64,000 nt of DNA from Treponemataceae bacterium (GTDB taxonomy: Bacteria > Spirochaetota > Spirochaetia > Treponematales > Rectinemataceae): contig CAXXVZ010000003.1 in NCBI GenBank assembly GCA_963678065.2, positions 1,280,001 to 1,344,000 of the forward strand, read 5' to 3'. A program made the position numbers and the translations under genes. The notes under the pieces were generated by a model that did no database searches, had not been told where the DNA came from, and saw only the letters and a program-made list of their open reading frames with translations. Positions 6,027 to 25,766 of this stretch are shown piece by piece. Numbering within the stretch: position 1 is the first letter of the stretch; each line of letters begins with the position of its first letter.

Positions 6027-6101
6027 GTGATTCGTGTCGCCCTGGGGCGCAGATCCGGGCGATGCCCAGCGCTGATGCCGCCGGACACCACCCGATGTGG
6101 G

Positions 6102-7133: not shown

Positions 7134-7209
7134 TCTATGCCTCCTTGAACACTAAAAAATTCCCCCGTGGGGGATCTTGGCCGGTCTCCTACGAGCCGGC
7201 GCTGTCGCC

Positions 7210-8169
7210 TCATTCGCCCTCTCCCTCGACAGTGAAGTCCTTCCCTACGGCGGCTGGCGGCCTGGATTTCCGGACGAGGCCGGCCACCGCGATTATCGTC
7301 ATGACGTAGGGGAAAACCAGGAATATCTCGGAGGGAAGTTTCAGGATTCCGATGCTCTGAGCGCGCAGCTGGAGCGCGTCGACGAAACCGAAGAACAGCG
7401 AAGCGAGGAATGCGCCCACAGGGCGCCAGCCTCCGGCGATGTTGGCGGCGAGAGCTATGAAACCGCGGCCGTCCGTCATGCCTTCGGTGAAGGAATTCGA
7501 GTTTTCTATCGAGAGGAAGGCGCCGGCGATGCCACACAGAAGGCCGGAGAAGGCGAGAGCCACGTAGCGCACGCGCACGACGGAACGGCCGAGTGTTTCG
7601 AGCGCCATGGGATGCTCGCCTGAGGCCTCCATGGAGAGGCCGAGGCGGGTCCTCTTGAATATCCAATACCAGACGAAGACAGAGAGCAGCGCGATGTACA
7701 CGATGGGTGTCTGGTTGAAAAACGCGGGCCCGATGAAAGGTATGTCCGAGAGCAAGGGGATGGCGAATTTAAAATCATGGAGGGTGCGCGCGACCGCGTT
7801 CGAGGTGCCTTGCCGCCCGAAGACTACCATCATGAGGTAGCGCGTGAGGCCGAAGGCGAGAATGTTCATGATGGCGCCGGCGACAACGTGGTTTATGTGA
7901 AGGGAGATGGCGGCCCAGGCGAAGAACAGGGAGAAGAGAAGACCTGCGGCCATGCCGGCCGCGAGACCGATCCAGGGGTTGCCCGTCGCCCAGCCCGCCC
8001 AGGCGGCGAAGAAGGCGCCGACGAGCATGACACCCTCCATGGCGATATTCGTGATCCCGCTTCTCTCGCAGATCACGGCTGCGAGGGCGGCGAGGGTCAC
8101 CGGCGTCGCCAGCCGCACCGTGGCCTCGAGGAGTTGGGGCGTAAAAAGAGCGATCAAGAGTCCTGTCAT
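7210..8169 (-). CDS. Nucleoside ABC transporter permease (NupC-like)
   Basis: ERSGITNIAMEG, GEHP and GRGFIALAA motifs; the real start is ATG 8169, overlapping the upstream stop. Confidence 0.9.
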   Translation of the reverse strand: MTGLLIALFTPQLLEATVRLATPVTLAALAAVICERSGITNIAMEGVMLVGAFFAAWAGWATGNPWIGLAAGMAAGLLFSLFFAWAAISLHINHVVAGAIMNILAFGLTRYLMMVVFGRQGTSNAVARTLHDFKFAIPLLSDIPFIGPAFFNQTPIVYIALLSVFVWYWIFKRTRLGLSMEASGEHPMALETLGRSVVRVRYVALAFSGLLCGIAGAFLSIENSNSFTEGMTDGRGFIALAANIAGGWRPVGAFLASLFFGFVDALQLRAQSIGILKLPSEIFLVFPYVMTIIAVAGLVRKSRPPAAVGKDFTVEGEGE

Positions 8170-9392: not shown

Positions 9393-10933
9393 GATGCGCT
9401 CCTTTCCGCCTTGCCGCGTATCATGTACTCGCCGACTTCCACTACGCTCGTGCGGGAGATGGCGCTCTCGAAGACGATCTCGCCTCCGTGGAGGACTGCG
9501 ACGCGGTCGGAGAGGGTGAAGATTTCCTCGAGTTCCATAGAGACGAGCAGAATGGCCGCGTTCCGCTCTTTGAGTTCGAGTATGCGTCGGTAGACGTACT
9601 CGATGGCTCCGACGTCGAGGCCCCGCGTCGGCTGAGATATGAGGAGGAAGGCGGGATCGCGCGAGAACTCCCGCGCGAGGATGACTTTCTGCTGATTCCC
9701 GCCCGAAAGCGTCGACGCGTGGGCCTCCGGTCCGGCCGCCCTGATGTCGTAGCCCTCCATGAGCCGCCCGGCCTGGGCCCGCATGGCCACAAAATCGAGA
9801 AAACCGCCGCGGCAGAGCGGCGGACGGTCGCTCCGTCCGAGCGCGAGGTTCTCCTCCACCGAGAAGGACAGGACGAGCCCTGAACCGCGGCGGTCCTGGG
9901 GCACATAACCCATGCCTTCGTCCATACGCCGCCTGACATCCCAGCGGGAAACATCCCTGCCCTTGAAAAGGACGCGCCCCGAATCAGGCGCCCGCAGACC
10001 GACGAGGGCCTCGCAGAGCTCGCTCTGGCCGTTGCCTTCGACGCCAGCGATGCCCAGTATCTCTCCGGGGCCGACGCCGAGGCTCGCCGCCTTGAGTGCG
10101 GAAAGGCCGCGGGAATTCCTCACGGAGAGCCTTTCGACGCGCAGGATCGGCTCCGGCGTCGGCTTGGCCGCGGGCCGCTCGACATCCAGGACGACCTCCC
10201 GGCCCACCATGAGCTTCGCGAGCTCGGCTGAGCTCGCCTCCGCCGTGCGGCGCTCGCCCTTCAGCTCGCCCTTGCGCAGAATGTAGACCCGCCCGGAAAG
10301 GTGCCGGACTTCCTCGAGTTTGTGCGTGATGATTATGATCGAGGTCCCATCCGCGGCGAGGCGCCGGAGGACGGCGAACAGCTCTTCCACCTCGCGCGGC
10401 GTGAGAACCGCCGTCGGCTCGTCGAGTATGAGAACCCGCGCCGAGCGGTAGAGCGCCTTGAGTATCTCGACGCGCTGCTGGAGTCCCACGGAAAGATCCT
10501 CGAGGCGGGCGTCGGGGTCCACGGCGAGGCCGTAGCGGTCGGAGAGCTCGACGACTCTCTGTCTGGCCCTCTTGTAGAGTACATGTCCGAGGCGGACAGG
10601 CTCGTCGCCGAGAATTATGTTCTGGGTGACGCTGAGCGTGGGGACGAGCATGAAATGCTGGTGCACCATGCCCAGCCCCCTGGATATGGCGTCCCGGGGC
10701 GAGGAGAAGCTCACGGGCTTTCCGTCGAGCAGTATCTCGCCGGAAGTCGGCTTGTAGAGGCCGAAGAGTATGTTCATGAGCGTGGTCTTGCCCGCGCCGT
10801 TCTCGCCGAGGAAGGCGATGATCTCTCCAGGGTAGAGTTTCACGGATATGTCGCGGTTCGCGACCACCCTCGAGAATGCTTTCGTGATATTGCGTGTCTC
10901 AAGGACAGGCGATATCCCTGCCTGCGTCCTCAT
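9389..10933 (-). CDS. Nucleoside ABC transporter ATP-binding protein (two NBDs)
   Basis: GENGAGKT, MVHQHFMLV, LDEPT, LSGGNQQK and QPTRGLDVGA motifs. Confidence 0.93.
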   Translation of the reverse strand: MRTQAGISPVLETRNITKAFSRVVANRDISVKLYPGEIIAFLGENGAGKTTLMNILFGLYKPTSGEILLDGKPVSFSSPRDAISRGLGMVHQHFMLVPTLSVTQNIILGDEPVRLGHVLYKRARQRVVELSDRYGLAVDPDARLEDLSVGLQQRVEILKALYRSARVLILDEPTAVLTPREVEELFAVLRRLAADGTSIIIITHKLEEVRHLSGRVYILRKGELKGERRTAEASSAELAKLMVGREVVLDVERPAAKPTPEPILRVERLSVRNSRGLSALKAASLGVGPGEILGIAGVEGNGQSELCEALVGLRAPDSGRVLFKGRDVSRWDVRRRMDEGMGYVPQDRRGSGLVLSFSVEENLALGRSDRPPLCRGGFLDFVAMRAQAGRLMEGYDIRAAGPEAHASTLSGGNQQKVILAREFSRDPAFLLISQPTRGLDVGAIEYVYRRILELKERNAAILLVSMELEEIFTLSDRVAVLHGGEIVFESAISRTSVVEVGEYMIRGKAERSAS

Positions 10934-10936
10934 CCC

Positions 10937-11998
10937 TCAGCTCCCGGCCAGCGTCGAGAGGGCGGGGCCGAAGGGCGGATAGGCTACGCCGCGTTCGGTG
11001 ACGATGGCGGTTATGAGGTCGGCGTCAGTGACGTCGAAGGCGGGGTTGCAGACCTTCACGCCAGCAGGAGCCATGCGCCGCGCATACCATTTTTCGGTGA
11101 CTTCCTCGGCCGGCCTCTGTTCGATGCGGATATTTTCGCCCGAAGCGCAGCCGAAGTCGATCGTCGAAAAGGGCGCGTGGATGTAAAAAGGAATCCCGTA
11201 GTGCCGCGCGAGGATAGCCACCCCCGAGGTGCCTATCTTGTTCGCGGCGTCCCCGTTCGCGGCCACGCGGTCGCAGCCGACGAGAACTGCCTGGACGAGG
11301 CCGCTCTTCATGACGATCGAGGCCATGTTGTCGCAGATGAGCGTCACGTCGATTCCCGCCTGCATGAGCTCCCAGGCAGTCAGGCGCGCGCCTTGGAGGA
11401 GGGGGCGCGTCTCGTCGGCGTAGACCTTGAAGCCGTAACCCCGCTCGGCGCCGAGGTATATCGGGGCGAGGGCCGTACCATAGCGCGCGGTCGCGATCGC
11501 CCCCGCGTTGCAGTGCGTGAGGAGCCCCCATCCTCTTCCAAGGAGGGTGAGCGAGTTTTCGCCTATTCGTCGGCAGGTCTCTTCGTCGTCGTCCCTGATC
11601 GCCTCGGCCTCGAGCATCAAGGCTTTCTTCGCTGCGTCCGGGCTCTCGCCCTCCAGGCAAAGAAGTTTCGCCTCCATCCTGTCGAGAGCCCAGAAGAGGT
11701 TGACCGCCGTCGGCCGCGAAGAGGCGAGGTAGGCCTTGGCCGCGCGGAACTCCGCGAGGAGAGAGGCGAAGTCGCCCGCGGGAAAGTCGCGGACAGCGAG
11801 ATAGACGCCGTATGCCGCGGCTATGCCTATGGCGGGTGCGCCCCTCACTTTCAGTTCGTATATGGCCTCCCATATTTCCCTCTGGGTCTTGAGCCTGAGG
11901 AACGCGACTTCGTTCGGCAGGAGGGTCTGGTCGAGGATCACGAGAGATCCGTCGTCATCGTCGAGCCTCACCGGCTCCGGGCCTTTGATTTCACTCAT
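10937..11998 (-). CDS. mtnA: S-methyl-5-thioribose-1-phosphate isomerase
   Basis: VRGAPAIG, RPTAVNL, THCNAG, ETRPLLQGARLT, GCDRVAANGDAANKIGT and NPAFDVT motifs. Confidence 0.93.
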   Translation of the reverse strand: MSEIKGPEPVRLDDDDGSLVILDQTLLPNEVAFLRLKTQREIWEAIYELKVRGAPAIGIAAAYGVYLAVRDFPAGDFASLLAEFRAAKAYLASSRPTAVNLFWALDRMEAKLLCLEGESPDAAKKALMLEAEAIRDDDEETCRRIGENSLTLLGRGWGLLTHCNAGAIATARYGTALAPIYLGAERGYGFKVYADETRPLLQGARLTAWELMQAGIDVTLICDNMASIVMKSGLVQAVLVGCDRVAANGDAANKIGTSGVAILARHYGIPFYIHAPFSTIDFGCASGENIRIEQRPAEEVTEKWYARRMAPAGVKVCNPAFDVTDADLITAIVTERGVAYPPFGPALSTLAGS

Positions 11999-12978
11999 CG
12001 CGCGTACCTCTCATTCGTGCCGCCAGCCAGCGGCCCTTCTTTTTCATCCGGCACCCCGAGCAGAGCCTCCGCGGTCGGGCGATCGGTGACCAGACCGTTG
12101 ATCACGCCGCCGCGCAGGGCGCCGAGAATGGTGGCCAGCTTCCCCGGCCCGAAGGCCATGGCGATCACGTGCGGCAATCGCCGTATACTCTCCCACTCGA
12201 GGGAGACCGTCCGGTCGGCGAAGGACATGGGCACATACCTTCCCGCAGCGTCGTAATACCGCATGAGGATGTCGCCCACAGCTCCCTTCGCATTGAGCTC
12301 CTCGAGCTGTTCGGCGCCGATGTAGCCCGTCTTCATGATACTCGAATCCCGGGTGACGCCGCCAAGCCCGACGAAGGCCAGATCGACTTTCGCCGCGTTT
12401 TCGAGCGCCCTTCCTATGGCGGGTTCCTTGATCATCATCTCCTTGACCCGCCCGCTCCGCACGAGGACGGGCATGGGGATGCTCTCGATCGGCACGCCCA
12501 GCTTCTCCGCGAGTGGAGATGATAAGCCATACGGGGTGCTGGGCTCCAGGTAGGTCCCCGCCAACTCATTGATGCGGGAGGGAAGCGAGGCCGGGCGTCT
12601 CACAAAGGGAAGCATCGCGCTCACCGTGGTGCTCCAGGCCACTCCGATCCTGCAACCCGGCGTTATGAGACGCCCAAGAAGCTCGGCGCCCCCCATGCCC
12701 ACGGCTTCCCTGCTCTCCTCCAACGTAGCGCCAGTGGAGACGACGATCGCGGTCTTGAGCCCATAGCGCTGCTCAAGCCGGAGGCCGAGCGCGAAGAGTT
12801 CCGGAAGCGGTTTCTTGACCGTTATCTGTACAAGTCCCTCCTCGCGGGCCCTCTTGAGCATCCTCGTCACGGCGACGCGGGAGAGTCCCATCTTCGCGGC
12901 GACCTCCTCCTGGCTTAAGCCCTCGATGTAATACAGATTCGCGATCACCGTGAGAGCCTCATCCGCGTATCCGCCCAT
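11995..12978 (-). CDS. SorC/DeoR/LsrR family sugar-binding transcriptional regulator
   Basis: N-terminal LYYIEGLSQEEVA..MGLSR.AV.RML..ARE.GLV HTH; GAVGDI sugar-binding domain. Confidence 0.9.
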   Translation of the reverse strand: MGGYADEALTVIANLYYIEGLSQEEVAAKMGLSRVAVTRMLKRAREEGLVQITVKKPLPELFALGLRLEQRYGLKTAIVVSTGATLEESREAVGMGGAELLGRLITPGCRIGVAWSTTVSAMLPFVRRPASLPSRINELAGTYLEPSTPYGLSSPLAEKLGVPIESIPMPVLVRSGRVKEMMIKEPAIGRALENAAKVDLAFVGLGGVTRDSSIMKTGYIGAEQLEELNAKGAVGDILMRYYDAAGRYVPMSFADRTVSLEWESIRRLPHVIAMAFGPGKLATILGALRGGVINGLVTDRPTAEALLGVPDEKEGPLAGGTNERYAR

Positions 12979-12989
12979 TCCGCCACCTC

Positions 12990-14135
12990 TCACAAAGATT
13001 CGAGCAAAGCGAGGAAATGCCTGGCGTTTTCCGCGAGGTCCGCGCTCCGGCGATGGAGTCCGCCACCGATAAGGAGGATGAAGTCCTTTCCGTAGACATC
13101 GAGCATCTCCCTGGCGCGGTCTGTCGTCATGCCCCCGCCCGGCGCGGGGAAAATGGGCTTGATATCTCCCATCGCCTCTCGTGAGGCCCGGGCGATGCCG
13201 AGGCACTCCTCGCGGGTGAAGGCGAAACGCCCGCCGAAATTCGGATACACAGTGGCGTCGGCTCCCGCAAGCCGCATGAGGCCGCCGTAGAGCGCGGCGT
13301 GGCTGAAGCCGCTCTCCGGGGAAGTCACGAACGAGCCTCCGAACGAGGGGTGCGCCATGATGGGCAGCCCGACTGAGTCGTCGTCGGCGATGAGGCGCAT
13401 CGCGTCGAAACCGACGAGGGCCGGGCAAATAAGGAGAGCCCCCGCCCCGAGTTCTCTGGCCCGCCGCGCAGAGGGCAGGAGCCTGTCCGCCCTCGCGGTG
13501 ATGTTGGGCATGTAGACGCTTCTCCGTCCGGTCTCGCGGTTCGCCCTCTCCACAGCCTCGACGCAGCGCGCGACCCTCTCCTCGAAGGGACAGAAGACCT
13601 GGTCGGCGATGCCGTGGTCGTCCTTGATGAGGTCGATGCCCCCGAGGGCGAATCGGTATGCCTGGTCGGCCAGCTCCGCGGGGGACAAGCCCATGGGCTT
13701 GAGCGCGGTGCACAGGAGGGGGCGGGAGTCCTGGCCGAGGAGGGCCCGAAGGCCGGACCGGCCGAAGCGGGGTCCGCGGAACCGGCGGAGGATGGATTCG
13801 GGGAGCGTCATACGCTCGACCTTGATGCCCGGCTTTATGCTGATGTTCCCGTAGACAACATTGAGAAGCTGAACGAGGTCCGGCCCGGCGACCTCCGCGG
13901 CGAAGCTGATCCTCGCGCGGTAAAGGCCCGGTCGGGAAGGCTCGAGGAGCTCGACCTTCCCGACTATTCCGTCTCTGATGGGGCCCTCCGGCACGAGATC
14001 CGCCGGAAACTCGACCGTCTGCTCCAGACAGATATCCTCCGCTTTGGCCCGGGCCTCGGCCTCGTCGCCTGCAAGGAGATAGGTGACGGCGAAGCGCTCC
14101 CCCCCGAGAATTCCGGACAGATGATCGCCCGCCAT
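12990..14135 (-). CDS. RuBisCO-like protein (form IV, KDDH type like the R. rubrum MTRu-1-P isomerase)
   Basis: EQTVE, GPRFG..GLR, ALKPMGLS, DLIKDDHG, MAHPS and PAPGGG motifs; start ATG 14135 overlaps the upstream stop. Confidence 0.9.
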   Translation of the reverse strand: MAGDHLSGILGGERFAVTYLLAGDEAEARAKAEDICLEQTVEFPADLVPEGPIRDGIVGKVELLEPSRPGLYRARISFAAEVAGPDLVQLLNVVYGNISIKPGIKVERMTLPESILRRFRGPRFGRSGLRALLGQDSRPLLCTALKPMGLSPAELADQAYRFALGGIDLIKDDHGIADQVFCPFEERVARCVEAVERANRETGRRSVYMPNITARADRLLPSARRARELGAGALLICPALVGFDAMRLIADDDSVGLPIMAHPSFGGSFVTSPESGFSHAALYGGLMRLAGADATVYPNFGGRFAFTREECLGIARASREAMGDIKPIFPAPGGGMTTDRAREMLDVYGKDFILLIGGGLHRRSADLAENARHFLALLESL

Positions 14136-15142
14136 CAGAGGGCCTCGGCTTTGGCCGCGCTGTGGACCGCCTCGATGCGCTGGGCCGCGAGTTCCGAATC
14201 GTCGATGCCGAAGCTCATGCCGGTCAGACTCTCGACCTTCGAGACGAGAGCCGAGGCGTCGAGTCCGTATTCTCTCATCAAATACCCCTTGGAGCCGCCG
14301 TGGGCGAAGCTGTCCTGTAGGCCCATGCGGATAAGGCGCTTTCCGATGCCCTTTTCCGCGATAATCTCGGCCACTTCGGCGCCGAGACCGCCTATGACGC
14401 TGTGATTCTCCATTGTAATGACACCGTAGCGCGGCTTGCACAGAGCCTCCTCGAGGGCCGCGTCGCCGGAGGGCTTGTGCGTCGACACATGGAGGTGCTG
14501 GATCGAGAGGCCCCTTCTGCGCAGCGAGGCGGTGGCGCGCATCGCCTCCTCGGTGGAAATACCCGCCGTGACGATGCTGATGTCGGAGCCGACGGACAGA
14601 ACCCGCGACTTTCCCGCGACGAAGGGCTCTTCCCGGGGGAAGAGCCGGGGGAGCTCGCCGCGCAGCATGCGGATGTAGACCGGCCCTTGCGCATCGAGAA
14701 CGGGATCGAGGACGGTCTCGACCTCGGTGGCGTCTCCCACCTCGAAGACTGTCATGTTCGGAACCGCGCGCATGACGGCGATGTCCTCGATAGCCTGATG
14801 GGTCGCCCCCCCGGGAGTGGTTATCCCTGGAAGAAAGCCGAAAAACTTGACGGGCAGATTGGAATAGGCCACCGAGCTCACGATCTGATTGAGCGCCTGC
14901 CGGTAGATGAAAACCGCGAATGTGTGGATGAGCGGTATGAAGCCCTCGCGGGCGAGCCCCGCCGCGAAACTCACCATGTTCTGCTCGGCGATGCCCATGG
15001 AGAAAAAACGCTCCGGATAGGCTTCCTTGAACTCGGCTATCTCGGTGGAGCCCGTCAAGTCCGCGGAGAGCACGACGACGCGCGGCTTGTCCGCGGCCCA
15101 CGAGACGAGATTCCGCGCGTGCACCTTGCTGAGGATTTCCAC
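14135..15142 (-). CDS. Transketolase-like protein, C-terminal (pyrimidine-binding) subunit
   Basis: ADLTGST, MGIAEQNM, GGATHQAIED, GPVYIRM and ENHSVIGGLG motifs. Confidence 0.9.
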   Translation of the reverse strand: MEILSKVHARNLVSWAADKPRVVVLSADLTGSTEIAEFKEAYPERFFSMGIAEQNMVSFAAGLAREGFIPLIHTFAVFIYRQALNQIVSSVAYSNLPVKFFGFLPGITTPGGATHQAIEDIAVMRAVPNMTVFEVGDATEVETVLDPVLDAQGPVYIRMLRGELPRLFPREEPFVAGKSRVLSVGSDISIVTAGISTEEAMRATASLRRRGLSIQHLHVSTHKPSGDAALEEALCKPRYGVITMENHSVIGGLGAEVAEIIAEKGIGKRLIRMGLQDSFAHGGSKGYLMREYGLDASALVSKVESLTGMSFGIDDSELAAQRIEAVHSAAKAEAL

Positions 15143-15145
15143 GGT

Positions 15146-16093
15146 CTACTCCTTTTCCGCGCGGCGCTTCATCTCCGCCTCGTAAAACTTCGCATACTCC
15201 TTTCGCTCCCCGGACGAGGCGAAACGAAGGTAATGGAACTTGGGCCGGCGCGCGTCGAGGATGCCAAGGCCCCGACATGGGTCCGTGCGGCAGAGGACGA
15301 AGGTGGGCCTGCCATCGGGCTTTCGGCCGCAGGCGGCGTCGATGGCGAAGGGATCGTGCCCGTCCACGACAGAGGCGTGCGCGCCGAAGGATTCGATTCG
15401 CGCATCGAGGGGCTCGATCCCCATGACGTCCTTCATCTCGCCGTCGCACTGCTGACCGTTCACGTCGACGCAGACGATCATGTTGTCGAGTTTATAGAAG
15501 GACATCGTCTGAATGGCCTCCCATGTCTGCCCCTCCTGGAATTCGCCGTCGGAGAGGAAAACGACTACCCTACCCCTCTCGCGCTTCAGTTTTTTGGCGA
15601 GGGCTATCCCCGCAGCCTGGCTCAAGGTCTGCGCGAGAGCCCCGCCCATCATCTCGAAACCGGGAGAATGCTCGGCGCCTATCATCTCGACCGTGCTGCC
15701 GTCTTTATTGAACTGGGCGAGTCCCTCGGGAGCCATCCTGCCCGTCTCAACGAGGGTGGCGTAGAGAACGAGGGCGTAGTGGGCCGGACTCAGGAAGAAG
15801 CGGTCATCGTCCGCCTTTCCGGGGCCATTGTAGCCCGCACCTGAGAGGGACCGGCCGCGTCCCTTGCCTGGCACAGCGCTGAAAGGCGACGGAACCAGGG
15901 GAGCGATGCTTGGCCCCAGGCGCATGACCTTCAGATAGAGAGTGGAAAGGATCTCCGCCGCGGAGCAAGCCTGGCTCATGTAGCCACCGTCGTTGGCGAG
16001 CGTGTGCTCCAGCACTCGCAGCCTGATTCCGCGCGCGGCGCGCGAGACATCGTCGATCCATCCGCTGGAGGGCGCGCCCCCGGGAACTGCCAT
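15146..16093 (-). CDS. Transketolase-like protein, N-terminal ThDP-binding subunit
   Basis: DRFFLSPAH, SDGEFQEGQTWEA...DVNGQQ (ThDP motif) and VDGHD. Confidence 0.88.
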   Translation of the reverse strand: MAVPGGAPSSGWIDDVSRAARGIRLRVLEHTLANDGGYMSQACSAAEILSTLYLKVMRLGPSIAPLVPSPFSAVPGKGRGRSLSGAGYNGPGKADDDRFFLSPAHYALVLYATLVETGRMAPEGLAQFNKDGSTVEMIGAEHSPGFEMMGGALAQTLSQAAGIALAKKLKRERGRVVVFLSDGEFQEGQTWEAIQTMSFYKLDNMIVCVDVNGQQCDGEMKDVMGIEPLDARIESFGAHASVVDGHDPFAIDAACGRKPDGRPTFVLCRTDPCRGLGILDARRPKFHYLRFASSGERKEYAKFYEAEMKRRAEKE

Positions 16094-16173
16094 GAATAGC
16101 CTCCGACCTCGGGGACCGCCTTAAAAATCAAGCGTTTTTCATCGGTCCGCCGGCTGAAGAATATGCTTACTGG

Positions 16174-16202
16174 ACTATATGACGGGATCGAAAATCTGTC
16201 AA
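16174..16202 (-). promoter_or_regulatory. Sigma70-type promoter of the transketolase-RLP-mtnA operon
   Basis: TTGACA-17 nt-TATAGT on the minus strand. Confidence 0.75.
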
Positions 16203-16214
16203 ATTGTTTATCAC

Positions 16215-16228
16215 GGAACTTTTGTTCA
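16215..16228. promoter_or_regulatory. Putative SorC/DeoR operator
   Basis: GGAACTTTTGTTCA, a near match to TGAAC-N4-GTTCA, just upstream of the -35. Confidence 0.55.
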
Positions 16229-16879
16229 GTTCAGTCCGAGCACGATCCCGCAGACCGCCTCCACGGAGCAGCCCCACGCGATTATGCCGCCCCGATGTCC
16301 GGCCATACAGATCGCGCCCTCTTCGGGGCGGCCGTTCTCGACGAATATGCGCCGTATCTCCCCGGCCATGGCAGGCGTCCCGTACGCGACATTTTCGCGC
16401 GTGCGCCTTTGCGCGTCCGGCCAGCCCGACCAGAGAGCTTCGCTGTGCACATGCAGGACAGCGAGGATTTCCGTCGACAACTCATAGAACGCTGCGTGCG
16501 TCAGACTCTCCGAAGAAGCCCGGCAAAGGCCGGCGCAATCCAGTCGGTTCCCCCGGATATCCCAGTCGGAGACATATGAATACGCTTCGGGCCCCGGATC
16601 GATCAAATGCCCTGTCTGGCTCCCCGTGATCAGGAAACCCTCGTGATCCGGCCCATCGGCCTCCCCGCAGCCCGGTATGCACATCCGCTTGCTGAGATTC
16701 CCGTAACCGATGCCGTCCGGCCCGATGCCGATGAGCCCGCGACTCCACATCGCCCTGCGGACGGGGCGCAACTCCGCTATCATCTCTTCGGAGACGCATT
16801 CCTGCCTTCTCCAGACACACTCGAACTTGATGACCCCTTCGTTCGCGTTCCTCGCGGGGTCAGCGTAATCGGGCATCAT
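16226..16879 (-). CDS. Class II aldolase/adducin family protein
   Basis: GYGNLS, FLITGS, ASSESLTH, VLHVHS and GHRGG metal-binding pattern; start uncertain (16879 or 16876). Confidence 0.8.
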   Translation of the reverse strand: MMPDYADPARNANEGVIKFECVWRRQECVSEEMIAELRPVRRAMWSRGLIGIGPDGIGYGNLSKRMCIPGCGEADGPDHEGFLITGSQTGHLIDPGPEAYSYVSDWDIRGNRLDCAGLCRASSESLTHAAFYELSTEILAVLHVHSEALWSGWPDAQRRTRENVAYGTPAMAGEIRRIFVENGRPEEGAICMAGHRGGIIAWGCSVEAVCGIVLGLN

Positions 16880-16887
16880 CCCTCCAC

Positions 16888-16901
16888 TGAACGTATGTTC
16901 A
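16888..16901. promoter_or_regulatory. Putative SorC/DeoR operator upstream of the aldolase gene
   Basis: Palindrome TGAACGTATGTTCA. Confidence 0.6.
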
Positions 16902-17007
16902 TTTGACAACATTAGAACACCATTTCATGATAACGGTCAATCCAGGGAAAAACACGATGGGCGATACTCTCGTCGTCCCACACACTATCCCCGGAAACGG
17001 AGGATTC

Positions 17008-18291
17008 ATGTTCAAGAAACAGCTTCCCATCGCCAAAGCGCTTGCCCTCATCATCTTCATCGGGTTCATCGCGCTGCCGGCCATGCAGGCCCAGGAAATG
17101 CCCCGGGTGGATCAGTCCATCGAGGCGATCCGTTCCGAGGAGTACGGGGCCTTCATCAACGAGGAATTCGGTGTCGCCTTCAAGCCGATCGTCGGAAAGG
17201 AGGACTTCCTCGCCGCCATCGCGATCTCGACCGGCGCCGCGGTCGGTTCGCTCGAGCCCGCCACGACAGCAGACGGGCCCTTCGACTCTCTGGCCGCTGT
17301 CTCCATCGCGCTCAAGGCCGCGAATATGAAGGAGCTCGCCTACAGCTATCCTGCGGAGAAAGTCGGGAAAAACCTCGCCCGCGCAGGGTTCGGCTCCCTG
17401 GGGCTCGACGCCCGCTCTGCGCAGGAGCTCGCCGCCGCCGTCGACACGGGACTGATTCCACCCGCGCTCTACGCCACATTCGATCCCAAGGCCGCACCGG
17501 GCGCGGACCTGGCGAACAGCCTCGTGGGCGGAGTCCTCTCCGCGAGAGGTCTCTACAAGCACTATATCGGCTTTGTGCGCGAGATCGACATCTACGCAAA
17601 GGTAAGCGACGCATTCAGGCGCTCCAGCATCATAAAAGCGCCGGAGCTTCGCGCCATCGTCGATTCGGCCCTCAGGCAGAACCTCGTGACGGGCTACAAC
17701 CTCAAAGATTCCCGCTACGACCCGCATTTCATCGACGCGCTGACCCTCACCTACGGACACTCGGACCTCGCACACGCGATCCAGCTCCTCGGACTCCTCA
17801 AGAGCGAGAGCATCGACGCCAAGGTTCAGCTCGAACCGAAGACCTCCGCCTTCGTCTTCATGAAGGAATGGGGCGATCCGGGTCCGTCGAACGAGGACTA
17901 CGAGGTTGTCCGGATCGAGAACGGCAACTATATCGAATACGCCAGGGAATACGACATATCTTTCGAGTTCAGGATGGTACAGGACAAAGAGCGCTTCCAA
18001 CCCCTCATCTACGCCTACGCGAAGAAGAACCAGAAGAATCAGGCCGGCCTGCTGATTCAATCCTGGTGGCAGCCGCTCTATCATTCCATGACGACCATGG
18101 ACGGCTACCTCGTAATCACGAACCAGCTCATCGCCAAAGGGCCCTACTACGCGCAGTCCTTCTCGCTCAACGAGCAATCGGCCGCGATAATTCAAGGCTT
18201 CAAGTCGATCGACCCGAGTCTGGCCGTCAAAACCTATCAGTTCTGGGTGGACGAGCCGTTCTTCCGCTATCTTCAGGGAATGGCAAAGTAG
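17008..18291 (+). CDS. Exported protein of unknown function
   Basis: GGAGG RBS, signal peptide ending AMQA, gene-like codon usage. Confidence 0.75.
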   Translation: MFKKQLPIAKALALIIFIGFIALPAMQAQEMPRVDQSIEAIRSEEYGAFINEEFGVAFKPIVGKEDFLAAIAISTGAAVGSLEPATTADGPFDSLAAVSIALKAANMKELAYSYPAEKVGKNLARAGFGSLGLDARSAQELAAAVDTGLIPPALYATFDPKAAPGADLANSLVGGVLSARGLYKHYIGFVREIDIYAKVSDAFRRSSIIKAPELRAIVDSALRQNLVTGYNLKDSRYDPHFIDALTLTYGHSDLAHAIQLLGLLKSESIDAKVQLEPKTSAFVFMKEWGDPGPSNEDYEVVRIENGNYIEYAREYDISFEFRMVQDKERFQPLIYAYAKKNQKNQAGLLIQSWWQPLYHSMTTMDGYLVITNQLIAKGPYYAQSFSLNEQSAAIIQGFKSIDPSLAVKTYQFWVDEPFFRYLQGMAK

Positions 18292-18438: not shown

Positions 18439-18945
18439 TTACCTCTCCGGAGCCTTGACCAGCCCGAGACCTTGCCGCACTGCACCGAGGTGCCAGGCCC
18501 CATGGGCTACGAGACCGAGAAGACCCGTCATGAATTCGGCATCGTCCCAGGACTTCTCGGAGGCGATGACTTTCCTGAAGGCCTCGTATTCTGCCCTGAG
18601 TCCCGACAGGAGAGCCTTCCATTCCGATTCGTTCACCGTCCTCGTGTCCCAGCTTCGCGCCCAGTTCGCGTCCGCGTAGGGATTCTCGCCCTTCGCGGCG
18701 CGGTTGGCGAGTTCGAGGGTGAAGCGGACGTGATTCGCGTGCGAAGCGGCGCTGATCGGGTCGCCCGCGCAAAGCGGCGCGCTCGCCCTGGCGGCGTCGA
18801 TGCCCTCGAGTGTTCCGAGAAGACCGCTGCGCGGATCATTGTCGGTGAACCAGGTACTCGTCGTCGCCGGCCCGACATGGGCCTCGTCGAAAAGGGCCAG
18901 AGCCGCATCGGCCACTACACGCTTCTCGATCGTCGTTCCACTCAT
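18439..18945 (-). CDS. DinB/DUF1572-like four-helix protein
   Basis: SAASHANH and AHGAWHLG histidine triad; AAGGAGG RBS. Confidence 0.75.
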   Translation of the reverse strand: MSGTTIEKRVVADAALALFDEAHVGPATTSTWFTDNDPRSGLLGTLEGIDAARASAPLCAGDPISAASHANHVRFTLELANRAAKGENPYADANWARSWDTRTVNESEWKALLSGLRAEYEAFRKVIASEKSWDDAEFMTGLLGLVAHGAWHLGAVRQGLGLVKAPER

Positions 18946-19131: not shown

Positions 19132-20043
19132 CTAGCGTGTTATAAGTTTCCCCGGAATTTTGTACATCTGCTGTGCCGGCTTGTCGCCCCTGAAACCAGC
19201 TTCGATGAGATCGGCGAGCTTCGCAGCCATGGCATCGAAATCCTGGGCGACCGTCGCGATGAAGGGACCCTGCTTAGCGATCTCGGCGCGGGCGAAGGCT
19301 GTACCGTCGATACCCACGACCTTGATCTCCTGCCTGCCGGCAGCATTGATCGCCTGCACCGCGCCCATCGCGGGCTCGTCCCATCCTGCCCAGATGCCTG
19401 CCATCGAGCCTTTGGCGGGATTTGCGGTCAGGATGTCCTGAGTAAGCTTGCGGGCGAAATCGAGAGGACCGGGCACTTCAATGTGTTTTTTGTCGACAAC
19501 CTTTATGCCGGGGATCGTGGCGAAATATGCAGCAGCAGCGGCAGCCCGCTCTCTGACTCCCGGATGGGGATCGTGCGTGAACATGTAGACCCTGCCCTTG
19601 TTCCCGATCGCGTCTGCGAGCGCCTTGGCGCTCGCCTTGCCGAGATCCGAGTTGTCGGAGGTCACGTTCAGGAGAACACCCTTCACGATGCCGGCGTCGA
19701 GGCCATAGACGGGGATGTTCACCTTCGCGGCGGCGTCGAGGCCGGCCGTCATCTGGGTGGGATCGCCCATGCCGAGCACGATGGCATCGACTTTCTGGAC
19801 GACGGCATCCTGGATCCGGCCGACGAGGAGGCCAAAATCGCCAGCCGTATCGGTGACGGTCACCTTCCAACCTCTCTTCTCGCCAATCTCCTTGAATTGA
19901 TCGATAACGTACTTGGTGGTCTCGTTAGCCATATAGGGCGTGACCACAGCCACCGTCTTCGCCTTTGGCGCGCAGAAACCGGCTGCGAGAACGACGAACG
20001 CAAAGGCCATCGTCAAGGCAGTCATCTTTCCAAACCTGCTCAT
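19132..20043 (-). CDS. Monosaccharide ABC substrate-binding protein (RbsB-like)
   Basis: Signal peptide; VTSDN, WDEPAMGA, VVGIDG and ATVAQDF motifs. Confidence 0.9.
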   Translation of the reverse strand: MSRFGKMTALTMAFAFVVLAAGFCAPKAKTVAVVTPYMANETTKYVIDQFKEIGEKRGWKVTVTDTAGDFGLLVGRIQDAVVQKVDAIVLGMGDPTQMTAGLDAAAKVNIPVYGLDAGIVKGVLLNVTSDNSDLGKASAKALADAIGNKGRVYMFTHDPHPGVRERAAAAAAYFATIPGIKVVDKKHIEVPGPLDFARKLTQDILTANPAKGSMAGIWAGWDEPAMGAVQAINAAGRQEIKVVGIDGTAFARAEIAKQGPFIATVAQDFDAMAAKLADLIEAGFRGDKPAQQMYKIPGKLITR

Positions 20044-20110
20044 ACAACCCTCCTTCCATAATCGCCACCTCTACAGGCGGCGCAATAGCCTATTGGTGTC
20101 GTCCGGGGAC

Positions 20111-21619
20111 TCATGAAGATTCACTCGCCTTTGCGAGAGCCTCCCAAGTCGGCGCCAGAATCCGGTGAAGATCCTCGAAGGCGCCGGAAAGACCCCGATA
20201 CGTCCGGGACCACTCCAATTCGGGCGAATACCGCTTCGAAATACGGATGAAACCTGGTCCCGGGTCCCAGGAGGAGAACCAGCCGAGGGCTCTTCCTGCA
20301 AGAATGGCGGCGCCCCGCAGCCCGGCATCTTCGGGCTTCTCGGGCACGGCGACGGGACATTCGAATACCGACGCGATAATCCTGCACCACAATTCGGACC
20401 CTGCCCCGCCACCCACAAGGGTTACCTCATGTGCGTGAGCTCCTGATCCGCCCAAAGCCCTGAATGCATGGAGAAGCGAAAAGGCGACGCCCTCGAGGAC
20501 GGCCCGCGCGAGCTCAGCCCTCCCCGTTTCCCTTCCGATTCCTATGAAGCCGCCGCGTGCGCGCGGGGCGCGGAAGGGCATGCGTTCACCCGCAAGATAA
20601 GGAAGAAAGAGGAGCCCGGATGAGCCCGCAGCCGCAGACTCTGCCTCGCGGTTGAGGACGGAAAAGGCTTCGTCGCGCGAGGTTTCGGCGAGAAGGGCAT
20701 TCCGGAACCAGTCGTAGTTGCCCGCCGCTGTCGTGACCGCACCTATCATGATGAGATCGATTCCGTTCGGATGGCGCAGATTGAATGCGCCCAGAGCCGG
20801 ATCGACGGGAGGGCCATCGCTTGTCATCGCCACCCAGCCCGAAGTTCCAAGGTTTATGGAGAGGCGTCCCGGCACGCCGGCGCCTGAACCCAAGGTCGCG
20901 GTTGCGGCGTCGCCCGCCCCATGAATGACGGGAAGACCTTCGGGAAGTCCTGTGATGTGCGCCGCCTCGTGGGACAAAACACCAGCCACTTTATCCGCGC
21001 GCACAATCTCCGGAAAGAGATCGGTCCTGATGCCGAGACTCGCCATCAGGTCATCGTTCCATCGATTCTTGTCGAAAAGGAGGAGGCCCGTCGTCGAAGC
21101 AGTCGTGAGGTCGGTCGCGGACGCGCCGCAGAGGCGCCAGGCCAGATAATCATGAGCGCCGAGGAAGATCCACCGAGCTGAATCGAGCGTCATTTTCGCG
21201 TTGCGCGACATCCAAAGAAGCTTCGGAGCGAGCCCGCCCGCGTCCTGGGCATTCCGCGCCTCGGCTGCATGACGATCCGCGCCGTAGGTCAGCGCAATCT
21301 CCTGAGCCTCCGCCGCCGCGCGGGTATCCGAGTAGAGGATCGCCCTCGGCTGGGGCCCTGAGCCGACAATTATGAGATCCTGCATCTGGCCACTCAGGAC
21401 AAGAGCTTCGGGAACCAGATCGGAGGCACAGGCAATTTCCGAGAATGCGGAAACGCAGGCCGACCACCACTCCTCAGGGTCCTGCTCCATCTCGGCACCG
21501 TGGGCCCAGGTCCTGTATCCCCGCGAAGCCGAGGCGAACACATGCCCATCCCGGCCGATGAGGGCGACTTTTACGCCGGTAGTTCCGATGTCGGCAGCGA
21601 TCACGCATTCTACGCTCAT
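20111..21619 (-). CDS. FGGY family carbohydrate kinase (xylulokinase-like)
   Basis: DIGTTGVK, EQDPEEWW, SGQMQ, GAGD, LGTSG, PYLAGERMP, VLEGVAF and GGGA motifs. Confidence 0.92.
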   Translation of the reverse strand: MSVECVIAADIGTTGVKVALIGRDGHVFASASRGYRTWAHGAEMEQDPEEWWSACVSAFSEIACASDLVPEALVLSGQMQDLIIVGSGPQPRAILYSDTRAAAEAQEIALTYGADRHAAEARNAQDAGGLAPKLLWMSRNAKMTLDSARWIFLGAHDYLAWRLCGASATDLTTASTTGLLLFDKNRWNDDLMASLGIRTDLFPEIVRADKVAGVLSHEAAHITGLPEGLPVIHGAGDAATATLGSGAGVPGRLSINLGTSGWVAMTSDGPPVDPALGAFNLRHPNGIDLIMIGAVTTAAGNYDWFRNALLAETSRDEAFSVLNREAESAAAGSSGLLFLPYLAGERMPFRAPRARGGFIGIGRETGRAELARAVLEGVAFSLLHAFRALGGSGAHAHEVTLVGGGAGSELWCRIIASVFECPVAVPEKPEDAGLRGAAILAGRALGWFSSWDPGPGFIRISKRYSPELEWSRTYRGLSGAFEDLHRILAPTWEALAKASESS

Positions 21620-22401
21620 GTTTTCCTCCCCGAGGCCGCAGCCCGGAGCGAAGCCACGTACCGCTTCATCCGCTCGCTGTCTTTGGCCGCTTCGACAAGA
21701 GCCGTTCCGACGATGGCGCCATCGGCGCCGAAGCGCCTTAAGTCATCGATATCTTTGGGCGTGTTGACTCCGAACCCCACGGCGACAGGCAGGCCCTCGA
21801 CGGCTTCTTTCACCGTGGCGATCCGGGAGCCAAGTTCAGATCCAAAGGATCGTCTATCGCCTGTCTTGCCCCCGTGGCTCGGGAGGTAGATGAACCCGGC
21901 CGCATCGCCTGCGAGGAATGCAAGGGTCTCTCTGGACATGTCAGCTGCGAAACCGATCGGCTCAAGGCCCGCCTCCCGCGACGCGCGCGCAATCGCCAAT
22001 CGGTTTTTTTCCTGAATGCCGACGACAAGGATGCCCGCGAACCCCGCGGCAGCCAGGGCTCGCGCAGCGCTCTGCCCGCCAAGTTCGTCCCAGGTTTTCG
22101 CGTACATCATCGCAATAAGCGGCCGGCCCTTTGCCACGGCCGGCGCGGCGAGATGCAAGGCCATGCTCGAGTCGAGTCCGGCGCGGCGAAGGTAACCCAT
22201 GGCGTCGCGAATCACCTTTCCATCCAGGAATGGATCGTCGATGGGGAATCCTATTTCGAGAATATCGAGGCCAGCCTCGAAAGCGAGGTCTGCGACGGTC
22301 GGGAATTCCTCAGGCGAAGGATACCCCGCAGGAAGGTAACCGATGAGTGCGATCCGCCCTTCCTGGCGGGTCTTCGCGAAAACATCCCCGATCGCGCCCA
22401 T
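21616..22401 (-). CDS. trpA: Tryptophan synthase alpha-subunit-like protein (orphan, in a sugar operon)
   Basis: YLPAGYP, LEIGFP..DP..DG, GKTG, VGFGV and ADGAIVGTA motifs; no trpB in the window. Confidence 0.75.
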   Translation of the reverse strand: MGAIGDVFAKTRQEGRIALIGYLPAGYPSPEEFPTVADLAFEAGLDILEIGFPIDDPFLDGKVIRDAMGYLRRAGLDSSMALHLAAPAVAKGRPLIAMMYAKTWDELGGQSAARALAAAGFAGILVVGIQEKNRLAIARASREAGLEPIGFAADMSRETLAFLAGDAAGFIYLPSHGGKTGDRRSFGSELGSRIATVKEAVEGLPVAVGFGVNTPKDIDDLRRFGADGAIVGTALVEAAKDSERMKRYVASLRAAASGRKT

Positions 22402-22403
22402 GA

Positions 22404-23378
22404 TCAGCCCCGTTTCCTTCCGCTGAGCCCCGAAAGGAGCACGGCGCCGACGATGATGACCCCGGTGAGAATCTGCTGAATATAAGAATTGACGCCGAGG
22501 ATGTTCATGCCGTTTCCGAGCACGCCCATGATCAGAACCCCGAGAAGAGTGCCGCCAACGTGCGGTTCACCCTCGCGGAATGCCGTTGCGCCGAGGAAGA
22601 CAGCCGCAGCCGCATTGAGCATGAAGGGATTGCCTGCCTGGGGATGGGCCGAGAACAGTCGACTTGTAAGCACGATACCAGCGATCGCGGCGCCGAGTCC
22701 CGAGATCATGAAGCCGCCGAGCCTGACGAGTCTGACATTGATGCCGGCGAGACGGGTTGCCTCAGGGTTGCCTCCGATGGCATAGAGTTTCCGGCCCAAA
22801 AGAGTCCTCTCCATGATCGTCCACACGATGGCCACGATTATCAACATGATAATGACTGCTATCGGAACAGGGCCGACGCTCCCCTGACCAATGAACCTGA
22901 ATGACTCGGGGATGCCATTGAAGAGTGTCGACCCGCCGGTAGACAGGAGAGCAAGCCCGCCGATGCTTGTCATCGTTGCCAGGGTCGCCACAAATGCGGA
23001 GAGGTTTCCATAGGCCACGAGCGCGCCATTCAGCATACCGACAAGAATTCCGACCCCGGACCCTGCCGCGAGGCCGAGTATGACGCTGCCGCTTGCAGTC
23101 ATGGTCGAGACGCACGCGACCCCCGCCAGACTCGCAATCGCTCCTATCGAGAGGTCGAAATCGCCCGTTGCCATGACCAGAGTAACTGCCGCCGCCGCGA
23201 TCGCGAGGGTCGCCGCCTGTTCCACGACATTCTTGAGATTTCCTATAGTGGGAAAGACGTCGGGCTTGAGCGCGGCGAAGACCGCGCAGAGGACGACAAA
23301 TCCGCCGAGTGTTCCCCATTTCCTGAGCAGATCCGCGAAACGCACGCGGCCATCTGATCCTGCGATGGAATTCGCCAT
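22404..23378 (-). CDS. Monosaccharide ABC permease (RbsC-like)
   Basis: DFDLSIG, FVATLA, GGNPEATRLAG and AAVFLG motifs; GGAG RBS before ATG 23378. Confidence 0.9.
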   Translation of the reverse strand: MANSIAGSDGRVRFADLLRKWGTLGGFVVLCAVFAALKPDVFPTIGNLKNVVEQAATLAIAAAAVTLVMATGDFDLSIGAIASLAGVACVSTMTASGSVILGLAAGSGVGILVGMLNGALVAYGNLSAFVATLATMTSIGGLALLSTGGSTLFNGIPESFRFIGQGSVGPVPIAVIIMLIIVAIVWTIMERTLLGRKLYAIGGNPEATRLAGINVRLVRLGGFMISGLGAAIAGIVLTSRLFSAHPQAGNPFMLNAAAAVFLGATAFREGEPHVGGTLLGVLIMGVLGNGMNILGVNSYIQQILTGVIIVGAVLLSGLSGRKRG

Positions 23379-23379
23379 G

Positions 23380-24891
23380 TCATTCACTCCCTTTTCCGTA
23401 GCATTGCGCAAGGACAGTCTCCTGATCGAGGCCACGCGCATCGAGAATCGCCTCGACGCCGCCCTCCCTCATTACCATCACTCTGTCCGCGAGACCCAGA
23501 ACCTCGCCGAGATCCGAGGATGCGAGGATGATCCCCGCGCCCCGGGCCGCCATGTCCCTTACGATCTTGTAGATCTCGTAACGCGCGCCCACATCGACAC
23601 CCCGGGTCGGTTCATCGAGGAGGAGCACTTTTGCGTCGCGGGGGATCCACTTCGCGAAGACCACCTTCTGCTGATTCCCTCCCGATAATTCTCCGACTGC
23701 CTGTCGCATCGATGACGCCTTGAGCCTGACAGACTCCGCCGAAGCCTTTGCCGTTTCCAATTCCTTGCGACGATCGACGAAGACGGCCCAGCGCGACAGA
23801 CTCCGCAAGTTAGGCAGGGCGATGTTCTCCGCTATTCCTCTGCGAAGGACCAGGCCATGCTGCCTTCTCTCTTCGGGAACGAGGAGGACACCGGCATGTA
23901 TGGCAGCCAGGGGAGAAGAAGGCGAATAACGTTTCCCCAAGAGGCTTATCTCGCCACCACGCGGCCGGATCGCGCCTCCCAGAGCTTTGAGCAAGGAGGA
24001 GCGACCCGAGCCGACGAGTCCCGCCACTCCCAGTATCTCGCCTGCCCGAAGCGTGAAAGAAACGGGGCGGCCTTTCCCGCGGTCGAGGCCCTCGACACAG
24101 AGGATGTCCTCTGCCGGCGATGATTTCGACTCCGGGAAGTTGTCCACGAGGCTCCTTCCGATCATAAGCTTTATGAGCGAGCGCGGATCGGTATCGGCGA
24201 TGTCAGTGACTGCGACCGTTTCCCCGTCCTTCATGACGGTCACTCGATCGCAGAGTTCGAATATCTCGTCGAGCCGGTGGGAGACATAGAGGATGGTCTT
24301 GCCTCGGGCCCTGAGCTTTTCGATAACTGCGAACAGGTTACGGATCTCATGATCGGTCAGAGAGGCCGTCGGTTCGTCCATCACGTAGAGACGGGCTTCG
24401 TCTGCGAAGGCGCGGGCTATAGCGATCATGGACTGTTGCCCGCGCGACAACCTCGACACCGGTTGACGAAGTGGAAGTTCTACGTCGAGTTGGGCAAGGC
24501 AGGCCGCGGAGCGCCGTTCGAGCTCCCGTCGGTCGATGAGACCAAGGGCGTTCGTCGGATAGCGTCTGCCGAGGAAGATGTTTTCGCTGGCATTGAAATA
24601 CGGGACCAGGTTGAGCTCTTGATGAATGAAGCTGAAACCCAGGCGAAGGGCATCTGAGCCTGACGCAATCTCCACCTTCCTCCCGTCGAGGACGATTTTG
24701 CCTTCGTCGGGCCTCTGTATTCCCGCGATGATCTTGATCAAGGTCGATTTGCCCGCGCCGTTTTCGCCGACGAGGGCGTGGACTTCGCCCGGCTGAAGTG
24801 AAAGCGATCCTCCCTTGAGCGCATGAACTCCTCCGAAGCTTTTTCGGATACCGGAGATCTCGAGCATGGGGGGGACGGTGTCTTTTGCCAT
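23380..24891 (-). CDS. Monosaccharide ABC ATP-binding protein (RbsA-like)
   Basis: GENGAGKS, HQELNL, DEPT, LSGGNQQK and DEPTRGVDVGA motifs. Confidence 0.93.
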   Translation of the reverse strand: MAKDTVPPMLEISGIRKSFGGVHALKGGSLSLQPGEVHALVGENGAGKSTLIKIIAGIQRPDEGKIVLDGRKVEIASGSDALRLGFSFIHQELNLVPYFNASENIFLGRRYPTNALGLIDRRELERRSAACLAQLDVELPLRQPVSRLSRGQQSMIAIARAFADEARLYVMDEPTASLTDHEIRNLFAVIEKLRARGKTILYVSHRLDEIFELCDRVTVMKDGETVAVTDIADTDPRSLIKLMIGRSLVDNFPESKSSPAEDILCVEGLDRGKGRPVSFTLRAGEILGVAGLVGSGRSSLLKALGGAIRPRGGEISLLGKRYSPSSPLAAIHAGVLLVPEERRQHGLVLRRGIAENIALPNLRSLSRWAVFVDRRKELETAKASAESVRLKASSMRQAVGELSGGNQQKVVFAKWIPRDAKVLLLDEPTRGVDVGARYEIYKIVRDMAARGAGIILASSDLGEVLGLADRVMVMREGGVEAILDARGLDQETVLAQCYGKGSE

Positions 24892-24892
24892 C

Positions 24893-25693
24893 TCATTCCT
24901 CCTCAAGGAGTGTCCCGACGAGCGGCTCGGCCCCGCCCTTCCTGAAATTGAAATCGTAACTGTGTCGTTTGCCAATTCGCTCTGTCGTCATGAAGAAAGA
25001 ATCCCCTGCGATGATGGCTTCGTCGTACATGAGCGCCTCGCCCTCGCCCGAACGGCTCAACCTGACAGAGAGCATCGCGGGATTGCCGGCCGCACGTCCG
25101 AGAACTGCGGCGTCAGCCTCATCGAGCAGAATCGGGACGAGGAGCTCGCGGGTCATCGCGATCGCTACGCCGCAGGTCGCCGAGATCTGGTCATAGAGCG
25201 ACAGCGCCGGGTCGTATGATTCGAGAAACGAGGCAAGCCGCGTCGCCAAGAAGGAAGACTGGAGGACGATAGGAACGCCGGCGAGTTTTCTGAGGCGCTT
25301 GATCCTGGGCAGGAGCGTCCCTGCGGGATACCCGAGAGCCTGTGCGGCCTGACTCGAAGCGACGAGGGAAGGTACTTCAAGGACGACAGTCTCGACTCGC
25401 TGATTCCGCGCCCCCATCTCTCGATCAAAACCGTATAGCCGCTCCCTTTCGAATTCGCCGACGCAGGGGGCCGTAACGAACATGCCGATACCATGGTCGG
25501 TCCTGATCAGTTCTTCCTCTTCAAGAAACTCGAGGGCACGCCGCACGGTCATAACCGTCGTCGAGAATTCCGCGGCCAGCTCCCGCTGGGTTGGGATTTT
25601 GACCCCGTCCGCCCATTGGCCGCTCGTTATCCTTGACCTGATTTCCGTGGCGATAGCGATATAGAGCGGCAATCCTTTGTTTCCCGAGATCAT
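24893..25693 (-). CDS. GntR family regulator (HutC/UTRA type)
   Basis: PLY..I...I..G......IPTQRELA.EF....MTVRRAL wHTH followed by a UTRA-like C-terminus. Confidence 0.9.
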   Translation of the reverse strand: MISGNKGLPLYIAIATEIRSRITSGQWADGVKIPTQRELAAEFSTTVMTVRRALEFLEEEELIRTDHGIGMFVTAPCVGEFERERLYGFDREMGARNQRVETVVLEVPSLVASSQAAQALGYPAGTLLPRIKRLRKLAGVPIVLQSSFLATRLASFLESYDPALSLYDQISATCGVAIAMTRELLVPILLDEADAAVLGRAAGNPAMLSVRLSRSGEGEALMYDEAIIAGDSFFMTTERIGKRHSYDFNFRKGGAEPLVGTLLEEE

Positions 25694-25701
25694 CAGCTAC
25701 C

Positions 25702-25766
25702 CTCTAAGTGTTATAGTGTTCTATAACACTTAGAGCAAGTCTAAATGCGAAATCGAAATCTGTCAA
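25702..25766 (-). promoter_or_regulatory. Promoter and GntR operator
   Basis: TTGACA-17-TAGACT (25766-25738) and a perfect 15-bp inverted repeat CTCTAAGTGTTATAG-tgtt-CTATAACACTTAGAG (25702-25735). Confidence 0.75.

Follow-up and report, generated by a model that had tools for sequence, protein, structure and literature searches.

The locus described here raises the question of why a gene resembling that of the tryptophan synthase α subunit (TrpA) should lie inside what otherwise reads as a sugar uptake operon. It is found in a window of 64,000 nucleotides from a Treponemataceae bacterium (assembly GCA_963678065.2, contig CAXXVZ010000003.1, positions 1,280,001 to 1,344,000, forward strand). 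TrpA cleaves indole-3-glycerol phosphate (IGP) in a retro-aldol reaction to glyceraldehyde 3-phosphate (GAP). A preliminary description, made from the sequence alone, had proposed a catabolic module that imports an aryl- or heteroaryl-glycerol, phosphorylates it and cleaves it to GAP. Our answer, to which we assign a probability of roughly 60%, is that the operon would import indole-3-glycerol, re-phosphorylate it to IGP and cleave IGP, without TrpB, to GAP and indole. The six genes, all on the minus strand, are the following, by coordinate.

19132..20043, minus strand: periplasmic binding protein of the importer (PF13407)
20111..21619, minus strand: FGGY kinase of a distinct clade, predicted indole-3-glycerol kinase (clade residues M79-Q80, Y96 and W262)
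21616..22401, minus strand: TrpA paralog, predicted standalone IGP lyase (PF00290 and TIGR00262)
22404..23378 (likely start; open reading frame to 23441), minus strand: CUT2 ATP-binding cassette (ABC) permease (PF02653), RbsC-like, below cut-off
23380..24891 (open reading frame to 24975), minus strand: CUT2 sugar ABC ATPase, best matches AraG, RbsA and XylG, each below its cut-off
24893..25693, minus strand: GntR-family regulator with a UTRA domain, HutC type (PF00392 and PF07702), conserved first gene of the operon

Coordinates and domain matches bear out the order first described (gntR, ATPase, permease, trpA-like, FGGY kinase, binding protein) and its spacing: the trpA-like ATG follows the permease stop after 2 nt, and the trpA-like and kinase genes share an ATGA. 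The likely ATPase start at 24891 was deduced from the distance to the gntR stop. The CUT2 importer is complete, with a binding protein, a two-domain ATPase (PF00005 twice) and a permease. In the profile search of the window proteins, none of the importer components nor the kinase passed any substrate-specific family cut-off. The PDB sequences nearest to the binding protein were distant (best E 2.8e-24), and its homologues were 61-99% identical among the 120 listed.

The TrpA-like protein belongs to the TrpA family by profile, scoring 122.9 bits against a TIGR00262 cut-off of 102.35, and by fold, since its model (predicted local distance difference test, pLDDT, 95.1) was matched by Foldseek to TrpA and to plant BX1 with template modelling (TM) scores of 0.85-0.92. 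It shares 25% identity with the canonical TrpA of the same genome. It is not the only trpA there: contig C2 carries canonical trpD, trpC, trpB and trpA, and elsewhere the genome encodes a TrpB2 that scores above cut-off. The genome searches for trpA, trpB, trpC and trpD gave no further match within the window. In homologue searches, about 35 clusters at 90% identity, or about 30 representatives at 50%, were found before canonical TrpA begins. The phylogeny put the TrpA-like proteins on a branch of their own: in a tree of 135 rows, all 68 trpB-adjacent TrpAs fell on one side of a branch with SH-like approximate likelihood ratio test (SH-aLRT) support of 91, and 62 paralogs formed the main group (SH-aLRT 88). 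This tree and that of the kinases were quick IQ-TREE searches with SH-aLRT as the sole support (no bootstrap). L227 and L278/L280 (loci are numbered with L and genomes with G) stood on long branches that the tree did not resolve, and they may have been recruited from TrpA separately.

The motifs LEIG, DG, GKTG, GFG, GT, VGIQ and AAD all read as first reported. The 62 clade sequences were compared with 68 canonical TrpAs in window numbering, whose match to Salmonella TrpA (e.g., Y172/Y175 and T180/T183) we take to be correct. The catalytic pair is kept in clade and canonical sequences alike (E49 in 100 and 100%, D60 in 94 and 96%, respectively), as are Y100 (94 and 99%), Y172 (100 and 100%), T180 (97 and 100%) and the loop-6 and phosphate-site glycines (G181, G209, G211 and G232, 99-100%). 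S55, D56, P62, N102 and D128 are lost in the clade, with D56 at 35% versus 96% in canonical TrpA and D128 at 34%; for positions other than D56, P57 and the canonical G181, a role in the α-β interface is our assumption. Tyr or Phe occupies position 58 in 37/62 clade sequences versus 0/68 canonical ones. An Arg three residues after the loop-6 Thr (12/62 versus 41/68) was not discriminating. No position carried Lys, His or Cys at 70% or more among the 62 sequences, so that nothing hinted at a Schiff-base or metal aldolase. Papers are cited here by PMC number, and what is taken from them refers to extracts of each. Glu49 and Asp60 are the push-pull pair in IGP cleavage and standalone BX1 has Tyr58 (PMC11574760); Thr183 binds Asp60, and changes at Asp56 and Pro57 matter only in the TrpAB complex (PMC6608616). 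From this pattern we infer that the clade would carry out indole-type retro-aldol chemistry without TrpB. A different pair was seen at L314:8112-9633 (G1574:C1), where two tandem, very divergent trpA-like genes lie in a BMP-type ABC cluster that also includes a GntR gene; one has Gln at the Glu49 position, the pair forms a separate branch, and it may represent a second repurposed TrpA family.

The lyase and the kinase are also joined physically in some genomes. All 7 longer homologues among 7999 scored candidates were TrpA-like-FGGY fusions, one of these seven sequence clusters has 26 members (two among those listed are named Sphaerochaeta), and one fusion was observed inside its operon (L276); the fusions may share one origin. 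The kinase itself scored 302.8 bits on the XylB model (TIGR01312, cut-off 380.25) and is below the XylB, GntK and GlpK cut-offs. In a 46-row tree, 26/26 module kinases grouped in a single clade (SH-aLRT 99), apart from the 14 other FGGY paralogs of the genome described here; the kinases of three Nitratireductor plasmids and of genus g28 belong to this clade. M79, Q80, Y96 and W262 are invariant in these 26 sequences.

Although conserved, the neighbourhood is rare. Searches located the binding protein in 2/61 relatives, 22/401 genomes of the same class and 9/401 genomes of the Anaerolineae class sample; the Actinomycetota sample had a single carrier in 401, in which the paralog is absent. A search for the trpA-like gene beside the FGGY kinase and ABC genes found it adjoining one or the other (kinase or permease) in 20/22 same-class genomes. 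In 16 of these the binding protein is on the same contig, and in 4 the locus is split across two contigs; one of the remaining two genomes has a canonical trpB at that place and the other is a fragment. The same adjacency was seen in L006, L007, L086, L227 and L229, and the same gene order in named Treponemataceae metagenome-assembled genomes (MAGs), in Anaerolineae MAGs and in one metagenome contig. The concern that the neighbourhood might be unique and unconserved thus falls away, and the arrangement is not due to chance, because it was found again in about two dozen other genomes. In alignment scans of genomes and metagenomes, which were dominated by canonical TrpA, 3 of 4 inspected loci (of 160) held the operon. 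No clade member was found in the 400 other genomes of the phylum sample (next best 178.6 bits versus 341.6), in the 13 genomes of family f23 or among 40 of 52 plasmid records listed when the paralog was the query, and the viral contig scan gave no relative. Six of the nine plasmid matches to the binding protein were examined; the Rhizobium and Shinella loci were dropped as non-orthologous, since their kinases do not belong to the clade and their contexts differ. Matches in Vibrio, Burkholderia and Deinococcus were unrelated. One MAG (G424, 7% contamination, possibly mixed strains) has two permease-trpA-like-kinase copies, L229 and L324.

The trp genes of 34 carrier genomes were surveyed. All 34 have trpB-type and trpA-type genes, and trpD is present in 29. 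Four carriers that are 94-97% complete (G1456, G1574, G1476 and G424) gave no match to trpE, trpD, trpF or trpC, so that salvage of the trpC substrate (carboxyphenylamino-deoxyribulose, CdR) was rejected. In G1476 and G424, TrpB2 is the sole trpB-type gene and the trpA-type genes are all TrpA-like; TrpB2 is also present in G000 and makes tryptophan from indole with a Km <1 µM (PMC11535334). Ten carriers have a second, solitary trpB1-type gene away from any trpA (L315-L323 and L198), 46-50% identical to the TrpB of this genome and possibly an indole scavenger.

The module was found repeatedly with canonical trpA, in part in a shorter form that lacks the paralog. All 7 paralog-less modules of the Anaerolineae class are in genomes with canonical trpA. 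In 3/3 Nitratireductor plasmids the orthologous module lies beside canonical trpBA, as FGGY kinase, binding protein, ATPase, permease and GntR/UTRA genes after an AraC gene divergent from trpB-trpA (in two of the three records the link spans the record ends). In genus g28, trpBA precedes the module in G1456, G1574 and G1597 and directly follows the kinase in G1435, where it is split over two contigs; these are three arrangements (G1456/G1574, G1597 and G1435). In this genus, trpC was found in 1/61 genomes and a full trpA in 7/61; 3 of those 7 carry the module beside trpBA, and the module was found in 0/5 trpA-less controls. G1603 (76% complete) has the module, and trpBA was not found in it. 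By these counts the module travels with trpBA, yet trpBA does not need the module. In G1610 (L356:7427-10504), trpD- and trpE-like sequences are, by eye, broken into short open reading frames beside intact trpC and trpF, which suggests pathway decay in genus g28.

Candidate expression signals of the operon were located upstream of gntR.

25702..25735, no strand: palindromic operator, likely the GntR site (perfect 15-bp arms, 4-nt spacer)
25738..25766, minus strand: sigma70-type promoter match TTGACA-17-TAGACT (10/12 positions match)

Position 25735, where the locus first described had ended, is the edge of the perfect palindrome, downstream of the promoter match. Promoter-type matches were as frequent as in shuffled sequence (2 found, mean 2.0), and a TTGACA occurs at a similar position upstream of gntR in most homologous loci. 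The palindrome is likely the GntR operator; its core is TGTTATAG-N4-CTATAACA (25709-25728), and a related 20-mer precedes gntR in 16/18 loci. In the operator scan of the genome it was the only strong site (29.4 bits, next 19.8) and no regulon outside the operon was found. Considering this single strong site and the conserved 20-mer, the operon is therefore likely to have its own local repressor, and induction would act through the UTRA domain of the GntR protein.

The scheme we propose would run as follows. The ABC importer would take up indole-3-glycerol, the FGGY kinase would phosphorylate it to IGP, and the TrpA paralog would cleave IGP to GAP and free indole without TrpB. GAP would enter glycolysis, and indole would either serve TrpB2 or a solitary TrpB in making tryptophan or be released. 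Where the paralog is lacking, canonical TrpBA would use IGP directly, and transporter plus kinase alone would therefore be a common form of the module; a single product, IGP, would thus explain every form. The sequence of import, phosphorylation and TrpA-type cleavage to GAP first suggested has good contextual support in the conserved gene order, the kinase fusions, the catalytic residues and the canonical trpBA elsewhere in the genome. Among the aryl- and heteroaryl-glycerols first considered, the evidence now favours an indole compound, and indole-3-glycerol as the most likely one; this substrate and the label catabolic stay provisional, and an anabolic role in tryptophan salvage, which the preliminary description did not contain, is one that we infer in addition.

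Several observations weigh against this scheme. No paper on free indole-3-glycerol in the environment was found in the literature search; trpA mutants excrete it. trpC is retained in 27 of the 34 carriers, and no operator was found at trp genes in the genome scan. Canonical TrpA and the paralog coexist in three g28 genomes (G1456, G1574 and G1597), a redundancy should the product be plain IGP. In 4 of the 7 full-trpA genomes of that genus (MAGs 83-90% complete) no clade kinase was found, and 3 of these 4 also lack trpC, so that trpBA can persist in the absence of trpC for plain indole rescue. The g28 and Nitratireductor adjacencies are two independent events, not seven. In the lyase, pocket positions differ from canonical TrpA (L59 in 77%, L125 in 98% and F151 in 97% of the clade), and loop-6 G178 (canonical G181), a TrpB contact, is kept in 85%. 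Upstream of two paralog-less modules lie further enzymes, namely short-chain dehydrogenase/reductase (SDR), creatininase-family and dehydrogenase-like genes (L228:3998-6761) and an SDR (L221:4070-4882), which may handle a variant substrate. Finally, 3HZ6, the nearest kinase in the PDB, has the signature of the clade and bears the label xylulokinase, and a model built on 3HZ6 with its co-crystallised ligands holds xylulose (PMC8028047).

Part of this evidence is what one would expect if the chemistry were the same and the substrate another: a stereoisomer, a ring-substituted or longer-chain indolyl-polyol or some other NH-heteroaryl C-polyol, in each case one resistant to cleavage by canonical TrpA, in an operon working mainly in catabolism to a sugar phosphate. 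The clade-specific pocket, the paralog and canonical TrpA side by side in genus g28, the local repressor without a site at trp genes and the prototroph-like gene content of most carriers all fit such a substrate. However, the lyase-less modules (7 Anaerolineae-class genomes, Nitratireductor, G1435 and G1154) could not use its product, whereas IGP needs no extra enzyme, and the modules that adjoin canonical trpBA speak for IGP in its unsubstituted form. We regard this alternative as possible, though unlikely.

It is harder to sustain an ordinary pentose or polyol operon, in which the kinase would form, for example, xylulose 5-phosphate and the TrpA barrel would have taken on the work of a sugar-phosphate aldolase or epimerase. 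The label of 3HZ6, with its shared M-Q, Y96 and W262, the XylB and sugar ABC models as top family matches and the SDRs adjoining some modules are in its favour. But a different gene passes the XylB cut-off, as the module kinase does not, in 5/5 genomes checked, and the clade signature is Met-Gln in 26/26 kinases, not the Met-His with which that of XylB-I and GntK starts (PMC3245297). The lyase keeps its E49-D60-Tyr-Thr network intact and conserves none of the residues (Lys, His or Cys) on which Schiff-base or metal catalysis would rely, and the repeated trpBA adjacency would be left unexplained. This makes a pentose or polyol operon improbable. That the paralog is an alternative α subunit, assembling with a canonical or solitary TrpB encoded elsewhere and channelling indole, is very improbable: it passes the TIGR00262 cut-off, keeps the canonical G181 and, in 74% of the clade, P57, and many carriers have a second, solitary trpB, but the five positions from S55 to D128 named above are lost, G1476 and G424 offer only TrpB2, one of the TrpB paralogs of T. 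kodakarensis reportedly does not bind TrpA (PMC11085991), and the C-terminal kinase fusion speaks for another partner.

Some further features of the neighbourhood were noted. On the minus strand of the window, positions 3866-16912 hold a cluster with a class II aldolase, a split transketolase, a RuBisCO-like protein, a SorC-type regulator, an IF-2B/MtnA-like isomerase, a BMP-type ABC system, a phosphorylase and an amidohydrolase, which resembles methylthio-nucleoside salvage. A link between this methylthioribose-type cluster and the module was rejected, as the cluster is absent beside the module elsewhere, save for genes that by eye resemble mtnD and mtnC at L242:14305-17941 (G1154), where they and a second FGGY kinase stand divergent from a paralog-less module. 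Open reading frames of 462 aa (16903-18291, plus strand) and 168 aa (18439-18945, minus strand) gave no Pfam or NCBIfam match.

By comparison with known systems, the import-kinase-cleavage logic is that of the pseudouridine PsuK/PsuG operon, which imports a dephosphorylated, C-linked metabolite, phosphorylates it and splits its C-C bond, with a sugar phosphate and a base as the products; the protein families and the substrate are different. With TrpA (TIGR00262, PF00290) the paralog shares the fold, the E49/D60 pair, the loop-6 Thr, the phosphate site and the family cut-off. In contrast to TrpA, its main clade is not beside trpB, forms a separate branch, lacks the loop-2 residues and the D130/N104-equivalent positions and occurs together with a kinase and an importer, as a co-encoded gene or in fused form. 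Plant BX1 (PDB 1RD5/1TJR; PMC11574760) is likewise a TrpA paralog acting without TrpB, as is predicted here, with an identical catalytic pair and, in 37/62 clade members, an aromatic residue at 58; unlike BX1, which is fed by biosynthetic IGP, the module lyase is bacterial, about 25% identical, and would be fed by an imported, re-phosphorylated substrate in a standalone activity that is here a prediction. Indole rescue by TrpB2 or a retained trpBA (PMC11535334, PMC11085991) also yields tryptophan from a scavenged indole unit, whereas it uses free indole; the module would act one step earlier and also give GAP. The kinase has the fold and ATP motifs of XylB, GlpK and 3HZ6; it differs from XylB and GlpK in its invariant residues and lies outside the functions tabulated in the extract of PMC3245297, which are those of sugars and polyols only and make no mention of "trp". 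No paper describing an operon of this kind and, among the papers listed, no occurrence of "indole glycerol kinase" phrasings was found in a literature search that lay mostly outside subscription journals, so that a prior description is possible; the extracts of PMC10041152 and PMC11085991 held nothing against novelty. The logic of a salvage operon is known, and the substrate, the kinase activity and a standalone bacterial TrpA would be new.

In its widest form, on which we would place an even bet, the proposal is that across at least three phyla indole-3-glycerol is scavenged by a specific ABC importer, an indole-3-glycerol kinase and a natural bacterial IGP lyase that acts without TrpB and arose from TrpA in up to three recruitments, that 3HZ6 is possibly a kinase of this type with a mistaken name, and that the dephosphorylated tryptophan intermediate is cross-fed and sustains genomes without trpE, trpD, trpF and trpC. 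TrpA was already TrpB-activated in the last bacterial common ancestor, so standalone determinants are hard to extract from alignments (PMC11574760). If our reading is true, the clade would comprise natural bacterial standalone TrpAs and would supply an alignment for finding such determinants. The kinase activity, the transporter ligand and the currency of tryptophan cross-feeding would then all be new, and the reading would correct the labels "tryptophan synthase alpha" and "xylulokinase", which mislead predictions of auxotrophy.

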